53,336 nt of DNA from Clostridia bacterium (lineage in GTDB: Bacteria > Bacillota > Clostridia > TANB77 > CAG-508): positions 1 through 53,336 of the forward strand of contig JBJFFE010000030.1 of the NCBI GenBank assembly GCA_051891435.1. The letters are read 5' to 3'. The notes below the pieces were generated by a model. That model worked only from the letters and a program-made list of their open reading frames with translations. It was not told where the DNA came from and ran no database searches. Numbering within the stretch: the first letter of the stretch is position 1; every line of letters begins with the position of its first letter. Positions 45,632-45,939 of this stretch are shown piece by piece. A program made the translations under genes and the position numbers.

Positions 45632-45939
45632 TGGTGGGCAGGGATGGATTCGAACCATCGTACTCGTATGAGAACAGATTTCTTACTACTATAGTTTTCA
45701 CTACCATTTTTTAATGTTTGTAGTCTGGACTTTCTCTTTATCTAAATTAGATACTAGGTATAAAGTCTCTACACTCGAGAATTTCTTCTCTAGCTCGGGA
45801 TTATCATCAGCTTGTCTCTGTTAAGACTTCCCCGAATTAGCCTAGTTTTCACTATACAATCACTTGTATAGGCTGCAATTTCTGACTTTTTAAATCAAAG
45901 CCTACAGTCTGCCGCCTTTAGCCACTCGGCCACCTACCC
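45632..45939 (-). tRNA. tRNA-Tyr(GUA) interrupted by a group I intron (exons 45904..45939 and 45632..45681)
   Basis: 5' exon: GGGTAGGTGGCCGAGTGGCTAAAGGCGGCAGACTGT. 3' exon: AAATCTGTTCTCATACGAGTACGATGGTTCGAATCCATCCCTGCCCACCA. Joined, they form an 86-nt class II tRNA with anticodon loop CTGTAAA, a complementary acceptor stem and an encoded CCA. Confidence 0.9.
45682..45903 (-). ncRNA. group I self-splicing intron (tRNA-intron/IC3-like core), 222 nt, no internal ORF
   Basis: Inserted between U35 and A36 of the anticodon. There is a U at the 5' splice site and a terminal G before the 3' exon. Core segments AGACAAGC, AATCCCGAGC, GTGTAGAGACT and TAAAGAGAAAGTCCAGACTA closely resemble AGACAAGG, AATCCTGAGC, GTGCAGAGACT and TAAAGAGAGAGTCCA of the cyanobacterial tRNA-Leu intron (recalled from memory). 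There are two TAGT-GAAA-ACTA GNRA hairpins. Confidence 0.85.

Follow-up and report, generated by a model that had tools for sequence, protein, structure and literature searches.

According to reviews, bacterial tRNA group I introns occur in cyanobacteria and in alpha- and beta-proteobacteria, where tRNA-Leu, tRNA-fMet, tRNA-Ile, and tRNA-Arg genes are the hosts. A scan of 80,413 genomes brought the known kinds of interrupted tRNA from 4 to 21, and its seed alignment includes an entry named "Mba143.Tyr.4Ug" in what is a computational catalogue without splicing data (Williams 2020, bioRxiv 10.1101/2020.01.27.920355). As a host type, tRNA-Tyr is already catalogued, computationally only. Here we describe a tRNA-Tyr(GUA) gene of a Clostridia bacterium (Bacillota) that is split in its anticodon loop by a 222-nt insert, very probably a group I intron of the IC3 type, the small kind known from bacterial tRNA genes, and that lies next to orf126, a gene for a predicted homing-type endonuclease. 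Both are found on contig JBJFFE010000030.1 (GenBank assembly GCA_051891435.1), of which positions 1 to 53,336 were analysed (hereafter the window). Beyond the tRNA-Tyr host type, which is not new, the locus stands out by its endonuclease linkage and by the natural empty and decayed alleles of its relatives, and our analysis suggests that intron and endonuclease spread as a team.

Collaborative homing, in which an intron without an open reading frame (ORF) is paired with an adjacent free-standing endonuclease that targets the insertion site, has been described for two phage systems. In cyanophage S-PM2, for instance, F-CphI is paired with the psbA intron. Here, too, an ORF-less intron is found together with a free-standing endonuclease, and intron-less, endonuclease-less relatives exist that could serve as recipients. 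The known cases involve phages, protein-coding genes, and other endonuclease families, whereas the present pair is on a bacterial chromosome, in a tRNA gene, and has a predicted target. A 2026 study of gut jumbo phages counted stand-alone PDDEXK_5 genes as homing endonucleases alongside introns of ~206 nt. For the endonuclease family itself, the entry "ssp6803i, PF11645, 2ost" (Steczkiewicz et al. 2012) is the homing endonuclease of Zhao et al. (2007). This enzyme, I-Ssp6803I, is encoded inside the tRNA-fMet group I intron of the cyanobacterium Synechocystis (cf. Bonocora and Shub).

ARAGORN in intron mode recovers the gene as tRNA-Tyr(gta), places a 222-nt intron between ACTGT and AAATC, and gives a spliced length of 86 nt. 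The exon/intron borders read from the sequence are GACTGT|AGGC at 45904/45903 and GTAAG|AAATCTG at 45682/45681, giving the following parts:

45939-45632, minus strand: split tRNA-Tyr(GUA) gene, from ARAGORN in intron mode and direct reading of the boundaries
45904..45939, minus strand: 5' exon of 36 nt, GGGTAGGTGGCCGAGTGGCTAAAGGCGGCAGACTGT, with U35 as its terminal base
45682..45903, minus strand: predicted group I intron of 222 nt without an ORF, AGGCTTTG...GTAGTAAG, first base A at 45903 and terminal guanosine (omega-G) at 45682
45632..45681, minus strand: 3' exon of 50 nt, AAATCTGTTCTCATACGAGTACGATGGTTCGAATCCATCCCTGCCCACCA, with A36 as its first base and an encoded CCA

The original prediction, made by a model from the letters of the window, had already given these coordinates, the exon lengths of 36 and 50 nt, the U35|A36 split, the 222-nt insert, and its terminal G, all of them right; the tRNA scan with intron models that it proposed is the one that recovers the gene. 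Once joined, the exons form a regular long-variable-arm tRNA-Tyr with an encoded CCA. Default ARAGORN and the Rfam tRNA model report no tRNA gene at 45939-45632. A second tRNA-Tyr is found neither within the 53-kb window nor in any of the 110 related 8-kb loci described below.

The insert folds into the paired (P) and joining (J) regions and the loops (L) of a group I intron as follows:

45873..45907, minus strand: P1 and its extension, exon CUGU plus intron AG (45907-45902) with the guide UUGCAG (45878-45873), and a P1a hairpin (45899-45881) in the P1 loop
45852..45871, minus strand: P2 hairpin with the GNRA loop GUGA; covariation at 8 of 8 pairs, and a GNRA loop in 111 of 111 sequences
45794..45845, minus strand: 5' strand of P3 (45845-45841), J3/4, and the P4-P5-P5a domain, in which P4 is 45836-45830 with 45800-45794
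45774..45793, minus strand: P6 hairpin, closed by a GAAA loop, with covariation at 5 of 7 pairs
45727..45769, minus strand: 5' strand of P7, G[A]GACU (45769-45764), 3' strand of P3 (45758-45754), P8 (45753-45739), J8/7, and 3' strand of P7, AGUCC (45731-45727)
45685..45724, minus strand: three-way P9 domain of P9, P9a, and P9b, the last with a GAAA loop in 111 of 111 sequences

In this fold P3 and P7 form a pseudoknot, P7 has a bulged A, and the P4-P5-P5a domain has a receptor-like internal loop, UCUUAAC/GAUGA. This variant of the P5 receptor (UCUUAAC..GAUGA) is found throughout the family except in a divergent subgroup, which alone has the canonical CUAAG..UAUG, while the L2 GNRA and L9b GAAA loops are kept in every member. 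The intron has the marks of the IC3 tRNA type, i.e. insertion in the anticodon loop, small size, no P5abc, and no ORF. Its G+C content is ~35%, the longest stop-free stretch in any family member is at most 77 codons, and none of the 111 introns is roomy enough for an endonuclease gene.

We examined the fold by covariation, using an explicit model from the anticodon stem through P9 and 42 sequences (the window's intron and 41 representatives) with mutual identities below 90%. Standard pairs form in 95.1% of 3055 cells, vs 36-41% in controls in which the 3' partners are shifted by 1-3 columns. Both-sided changes are seen in 38 of the 73 pairs, and there are 280 compensatory cells against 72 in shuffles, a value that 0 of 500 shuffles reach. 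Besides P2 and P6, the covarying helices are P3 (4/5 pairs), P5, P5a, P8 (4/6), P9a (3/3), and P9b (4/5), and the U.G wobble at the splice site is present in 42 of 42 representatives. Across the 111 homologs, exon CTGT, guide TTGCA, J6/7-P7 (TGTAGAGACTTT), and the ...AG|AAA end with omega-G are invariant (111/111), and J8/7-P7' is identical in 90, with the others differing at one base. Folded as a single sequence, the intron reaches -49.4 kcal/mol (z=-2.83) and recovers P2, P4, P5, P5a, P6, P8, P9a, and P9b.

These results uphold the group I reading of the original prediction, with P1 and its U35.G wobble and the terminal G in place, and P3-P9 with the P3/P7 pseudoknot present and, apart from the invariant P4 and P7, covarying. 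Four motifs had been named as hallmarks, and all four are present. Specifically, AATCCCGAGC, GTGTAGAGACT, and TAAAGAGAAAGTCCAGACTA correspond to P4'/P6, J6/7-P7, and J8/7-P7', a conserved core that is invariant or nearly so among the 111 homologs, while AGACAAGC is a variable L5a loop and no hallmark. The two GNRA (GAAA) hairpins that had been counted are in fact three GNRA loops, namely L2 (GUGA), L6 (GAAA), and L9b (GAAA). A 13-nt match, TAGTGAAAACTAT, between P9b (45691-45703) and the loop of the downstream terminator (45590-45633) is probably a coincidence, with GTGAAAAC found downstream in just 2 of 108 relatives; J2/3 holds GTGAAAAC, akin to the string shared by P9b and the terminator loop.

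The Rfam group I model (Intron_gpI, RF00028) aligns over its full length (model positions 1-253) with 39.5 bits and E=1.7e-8 in a local scan of 801 nt; together with the covariation, this puts the fold well outside what chance would give. The gathering threshold of 50 bits is not reached by the window's intron, whole-window scans give no Intron_gpI match either at that threshold or by E-value (the speed filters lose it), and 0 of 15 relatives match at the gathering threshold. The Rfam test proposed earlier is therefore significant locally and fails in whole-window scans, and, with a family that lies below the threshold, taking the lack of a significant Rfam match as refutation would have misled. 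The Rfam group I seeds include no bacterial sequence (Williams 2020, bioRxiv 10.1101/2020.01.27.920355). This sub-threshold score does count against the group I assignment; P4 and P7 are invariant in the 42 sequences, and these two helices are neutral on the fold.

Compared with the classical IC3 introns of cyanobacterial and plastid tRNA-Leu(UAA), the window's intron is likewise small, ORF-less, inserted in the anticodon loop, and without P5abc, and the strings AAUUCGGNGAA, CCGAGC, GUGUAGAGACU, and AAG..A.AGUCC are common to both. We take the Azoarcus tRNA-Ile intron, another small IC3 tRNA type, to be similar. Unlike the classical introns, the window's intron interrupts another tRNA, splits it after U35 rather than after U34 or A37, has an extra hairpin in the P1 loop, carries (like most members of its family) the P5 receptor UCUUAAC/GAUGA, and is hosted by Bacillota instead of cyanobacteria or proteobacteria. 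The likeness to the cyanobacterial tRNA-Leu intron, to which the original prediction had pointed, is a fair one: J3/4-P4, J6/7-P7, J8/7, and the three-way P9 ending in ...aag match the Leu.3Ug, Leu.2Ug, and Ser.3Ug seeds, and the Leu.3Ug seeds share the three-way P9 domain, its GAAA loop, and the ...aag end.

The Tyr.4Ug seed (Mba143) resembles the window in its host, its split after loop position 4 (CUGU/a...g/AAA), U-1, omega-G, and a P1 of CUGUAA with UUGCAG. Its core and 3' domain differ, with GAUAACGGUGAAA...AAUACCGUGG and a single P9 hairpin. Identity of the window's intron is 59% to this seed vs 54-60% to seeds from other tRNAs. Because the Tyr seed is no closer than those from other tRNAs and the 3' domain is Leu/Ser-like, the window's intron is placed, by sequence comparison, in a separate large clade of gut Clostridia (Bacillota) that is unannotated and missed by standard tools. 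The claim that a tRNA-Tyr host is unusual holds against the classical reviews; it does not hold given the "Tyr.4Ug" entry of the 2020 preprint and the at least 110 species found here.

We searched contigs from one genome per species with a pattern that links the tRNA-Tyr exon end GACTGT to two core strings, which gives at least 120 loci where about 4 are expected by chance. Among the matches listed, 110 of 120 loci are tRNA-Tyr(GTA) genes split at the identical site by introns of 214-250 nt, whose identity to the window's intron is 70-99%. Homologous introns thereby occupy this position in at least 110 species-level genomes. The hosts are nearly all uncultured gut or rumen metagenome-assembled genomes (MAGs) named "Clostridia bacterium" or "Clostridium sp. 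CAG", and a divergent intron subgroup occurs in MAGs labelled Bacilli, Tenericutes, or Mycoplasma. The nearest genome among the matches listed is CAMEUC01 (L196 in our numbering of loci), with an intron identity of 98.6% and flanking proteins at 96-97%. Matches outside Bacillota (L128, L152, L154, L157, L181, L199, L219, and L227) are in Fibrobacter, Bdellovibrionales, Acidobacteria, a cyanobacterium, Saccharibacteria, and Thiobacillus MAGs, where the introns are in other tRNAs or without assignment; one of them, called "tRNA-Pyl(cta)" by ARAGORN (L128), is probably a mis-assigned split tRNA.

In viral contigs, a first core pattern was too broad and returned at least 120 loci. The core AATTCGGNGAA...CCGAGC...GTGTAGAGACT is very common in these phage contigs (L001-L120), where, according to ARAGORN, it interrupts the anticodon loop in tRNA genes of a range of isotypes, namely Met, Leu, Arg, Lys, Gln, Pro, Ser, Asn, Ala, and Glu, and many other core matches have no recognisable tRNA around them. 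A phage "tRNA-Tyr" called by ARAGORN (L032) is by eye tRNA-Thr(UGU) and was rejected. The Tyr-specific pattern gives 37 matches in viral contigs, among which a split tRNA-Tyr occurs in L245 only and with an unrelated intron; on this 99-kb phage contig, the gene is split at ACTGT|AAATC by 208 nt that have no relation in sequence to the window's intron. At least 3 intron lineages thus seem to use the tRNA-Tyr site, i.e. that of L245, the window's clade, and Williams's seed.

Uninterrupted alleles were sought in metagenomes through the spliced junction AAAGGCGGCAGACTGTAAATCTGTTCTC, which gives at least 120 loci, from which 116 full-length uninterrupted tRNA-Tyr genes were extracted. Among the uninterrupted genes listed, 4 are identical to the window's spliced tRNA and 4 differ at one base, and among the matches listed tRNA-Met precedes 60 of the 116. 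Several intron-less loci are syntenic with the window (acyl-CoA ligase, orf279, and orf126), and in these the alignment to the window breaks off at the 5' splice site, to continue from the first base of the 3' exon. When ordered by the identity of flanking proteins to the window, carriers and non-carriers are interleaved: for the ligase, carrier L127 is at 61% and non-carrier L326 at 60%, and for orf279, carrier L218 and non-carrier L387 are both at 66%. The distribution is thus sporadic and implies repeated loss or gain. The intron is optional in this lineage.

The split gene is part of a short transcription unit next to orf126, with the following features:

46052..46080, minus strand: sigma-70-type promoter of the tRNA-Met/tRNA-Tyr unit, TTGACA-17-TATAAT, matching the consensus at 12 of 12 positions
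45956..46032, minus strand: tRNA-Met(CAT), the upstream, co-transcribed neighbour
45590..45633, minus strand: intrinsic terminator directly past the CCA end, a 20-bp hairpin with a T-tract
45431..45483, minus strand: signals of orf126, with TTGACA-17-TACAAT (45483-45455) as a promoter-like site and AAAGGAG (45437-45431) as the ribosome-binding site
45043..45423, minus strand: orf126, 126 aa, predicted free-standing PD-(D/E)XK endonuclease of the I-Ssp6803I family (PF11645), from its Pfam and 2OST matches

The split tRNA-Tyr begins 16 nt after tRNA-Met, which is upstream of split tRNA-Tyr in 74 of 104 related loci, and sequences with a similar hairpin and T-run are found downstream in related loci. 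The acceptor stem has one strand in each exon, and its pairs co-change across species (GGGTAGG/CCTGCCC, GGACAGG/CCTGTCC, GGGGAGA/TCTCCCC, GGGCAGA/TCTGCCC, and GGGCAAG/CTTGCCC). This covariation between exons is expected only if the halves form a working tRNA, and therefore points to selection on the joined product. Exon and intron divergence are weakly correlated (rho 0.17).

orf126 is outside the intron, beyond the tRNA gene and its terminator. It matches PF11645 (PDDEXK_5) with 64 bits and E=1.9e-17 against a cut-off of 26.1, and Protein Data Bank entry 2OST with E=1.6e-6 over residues 7-104. The catalytic D37, D39, Q52, and K54 are invariant in 24 database homologs, and PLNDTQDYDL...Q-x-K is present in at least 95% of 49 locus homologs. 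Like I-Ssp6803I, the protein belongs to PF11645, aligns over nearly its whole length, has PL.D..YDL and KVQVKS, and is tied to a group I intron in a tRNA anticodon loop; I-Ssp6803I is encoded by its intron, whereas orf126 is outside and has its own promoter-like site and ribosome-binding site. Homologs at related loci are full-length and on the same strand in 48 cases, and most start 55-81 nt after the 3' end of tRNA-Tyr, compared with 209 nt in the window.

We find the endonuclease gene downstream of 52 of 94 split but 0 of 90 intact tRNA-Tyr genes (loci with at least 700 nt downstream; Fisher p=4e-20), in a comparison of carriers from species-representative genomes with non-carriers from metagenome contigs. 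When four database variants of the endonuclease are taken as the starting point instead (31 contigs), a split gene lies upstream in 21 of 21 contigs that extend far enough in that direction, and an intact junction is present in 0 of 31. Two Clostridia loci in which ARAGORN finds no split gene (L231 and L239) have no endonuclease match. In a 5.6-kb phage-classified contig with a tRNA array (L046), a tRNA-Tyr with a different body and the same anticodon arm is split by a shorter relative of the intron without P1a, and an endonuclease homolog (E=3e-33) starts ~80 nt downstream (region 2300-3100, minus-strand coordinates); this contig also holds a second intron core elsewhere. On these sequence grounds, orf126 is a putative homing-type endonuclease of the I-Ssp6803I family, strongly linked to the presence of the intron.

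Other loci hold partial versions of the pair. In carriers L185, L218, L208, L232, and L235, there are only fragments of the endonuclease. Among intron-less loci, L396 retains a remnant of 8 codons and a C-terminal scrap, in L380 the endonuclease sequence is cut off by the contig end, and in L366 an endonuclease pseudogene with an in-frame stop (L366:10900-11830) is 10 kb from an intact tRNA-Tyr. The L366 pseudogene is preceded by an apparent decayed tRNA 3' end (...TTCGAATACGTCTCTTGCTAACGCACCA) and the usual terminator, and may be the relic of an ectopic copy of the cassette. All stages of a homing cycle appear to be sampled in gut Clostridia, i.e. the empty site, intron with endonuclease, intron with decayed endonuclease, and endonuclease remnant without intron.

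From its fold, we infer that the intron self-splices. The tRNA body, including the anticodon stem, would fold, and C32-U35 with the first two intron bases would pair with the guide UUGCAG to form P1, in which U35 makes the wobble with G. A free guanosine bound in P7 would then attack after U35, and the two guide U's released from intron bases 1-2 could pair with A36-A37 as a short P10. Finally, omega-G (45682) would enter the G site, and U35 would be joined to A36 to give the 86-nt tRNA-Tyr.

For mobility, we propose that orf126 would cut the anticodon arm of uninterrupted tRNA-Tyr genes at the pseudo-palindrome CAGA-CTGTAAA-TCTG. This target is proposed by analogy with I-Ssp6803I, whose target is the pseudo-palindromic anticodon arm of tRNA-fMet. 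The endonuclease gene occurs with the anticodon arms GGCAGACTGT|AAATCTGTT and ACCAGACTGT|AAATCTGGC, and these two variants reduce the constant core to CAGACTGTAAATCTG. The intron would split the target site and so protect its own chromosome, and whenever a cut allele without the intron is repaired, intron and endonuclease gene would be copied into it jointly, as in collaborative homing. That orf126 acts in this way, as a free-standing homing endonuclease that cuts the tRNA-Tyr anticodon arm in partnership with the intron, is a reading we hold with roughly even confidence, leaning slightly in its favour. Whether we see here a natural instance of collaborative homing in a tRNA gene of a bacterial chromosome, at a stage before the endonuclease gene enters the tRNA intron (the state of cyanobacterial tRNA-fMet), we regard as evenly balanced. 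Taken as a whole, a functional split tRNA-Tyr gene, with the homing account as the less certain part, is, with good confidence, the best explanation of the data.

Several observations weigh against cooperation between the two elements, beside the difference in sampling mentioned above. About half of the intron carriers (42/94) have no endonuclease gene; at L358 an endonuclease with an apparently intact catalytic region and a lost stop codon (162 aa) is beside an uninterrupted tRNA-Tyr; endonuclease divergence tracks the flanking gene (rho 0.39) at least as well as the intron (rho 0.26), which gives no hint that the two moved horizontally together; non-homing nucleases have PF11645-like domains as well, including the DREN domain of the SPARDA defence system; and for the fold of orf126, AlphaFold gives a poor model (predicted local distance difference test score, pLDDT, 58) for which Foldseek finds no significant match. 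orf126 and the intron could thus be mere neighbours, with orf126 homing to its own site downstream of tRNA-Tyr (intron-less homing) or serving another role, e.g. in defence, and the link reflecting the shared ancestry of a sub-lineage. The weak homolog (E=1e-5) between an uninterrupted tRNA-Ser and tRNA-Thr in the tRNA array of a 379-kb phage contig (L079, 12270-12940) would fit this explanation as well. However, carriers and non-carriers are interleaved at similar flank distances while the gene is nearly confined to carriers, the pair recurs in the unrelated tRNA-Tyr body of L046, and I-Ssp6803I, the one family member that has been characterised, has its gene within a group I intron of tRNA-fMet. 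We consider independence of the two a real but doubtful possibility.

The other explanations concern the intron itself. An RNA with a group I fold may splice inefficiently alone in the cell and need a protein helper, either a host factor or orf126 as a maturase, and the very A+U-rich RNA (~35% G+C), a P1 of only 6 pairs, and a predicted P10 of only 2 would be in keeping with this. We think it unlikely, given that about half of the carriers are without orf126 and keep intact exons and intron fold, that the invariant tetraloops are of the kind that usually stabilises small IC3 introns, and that we know of no PD-(D/E)XK maturase. It is more improbable still that the intron is kept as a regulator of tRNA-Tyr supply, for example if maturation depended on the pool of guanosine nucleotides or on the growth state. 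Group I splicing does require a guanosine cofactor, and the intron is strongly conserved in many species without an internal endonuclease gene, but close relatives have no intron, no sensor domain is apparent in the sequence, and the linkage to a homing-type nuclease suggests selfish maintenance. Least credible of all is a dead relic, i.e. a tRNA-Tyr pseudogene with a decaying intron in a genome where another copy decodes tyrosine. Such a copy could lie elsewhere in the genome, beyond the 53 kb covered, and relatives do have intron-less alleles. Yet in more than 100 species both the helices of the intron and the acceptor stem that joins the two exons are kept by compensatory changes, the strings of the catalytic core do not vary, the unit has a promoter of perfect consensus and a terminator, and neither the window nor the 110 related loci hold the second tRNA-Tyr that this explanation requires.

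Since default ARAGORN and the Rfam gathering threshold miss the gene, at least 110 species-level genomes, mostly gut and rumen MAGs of Clostridia and Bacilli, would seem to lack this tRNA-Tyr gene, and missed split genes of this kind could distort estimates of tRNA complement and genome completeness. The clade shows that bacterial tRNA group I introns occur commonly among uncultured Bacillota, beyond the cyanobacteria and proteobacteria of the reviews. If the endonuclease link is functional, the locus would offer a tractable system for a proposed origin of mobile introns, in which an intron without an ORF and a free-standing endonuclease meet at a single site, with natural alleles available at several stages, and it would tie this origin to the sole characterised homing member of PF11645.

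Three minor observations concern the surroundings of the locus. An Rfam match to "Plastid-ycf2 5'UTR" lies antisense to tRNA-Met (45958-46032, plus strand; 41.9 bits, below threshold) and is apparently an artefact of a tRNA-derived model. Only the window and its closest relatives (L196, L167, and L398-L405) have a thyX gene (46280-46987, minus strand) that separates orf279 from the tRNA-Met/tRNA-Tyr unit; more distant syntenic loci have no thyX there, which resembles a lineage-specific insertion beside the tRNA unit. The gene for pyruvate formate-lyase activating enzyme, beside pflB (44238-44880, plus strand), is divided through a frameshift in a T-run near 44480 into two overlapping ORFs, a radical-SAM part of 87 aa and one of 136 aa. 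This two-ORF form recurs in independent assemblies (L398-L407), and is thus either real or a systematic homopolymer error.

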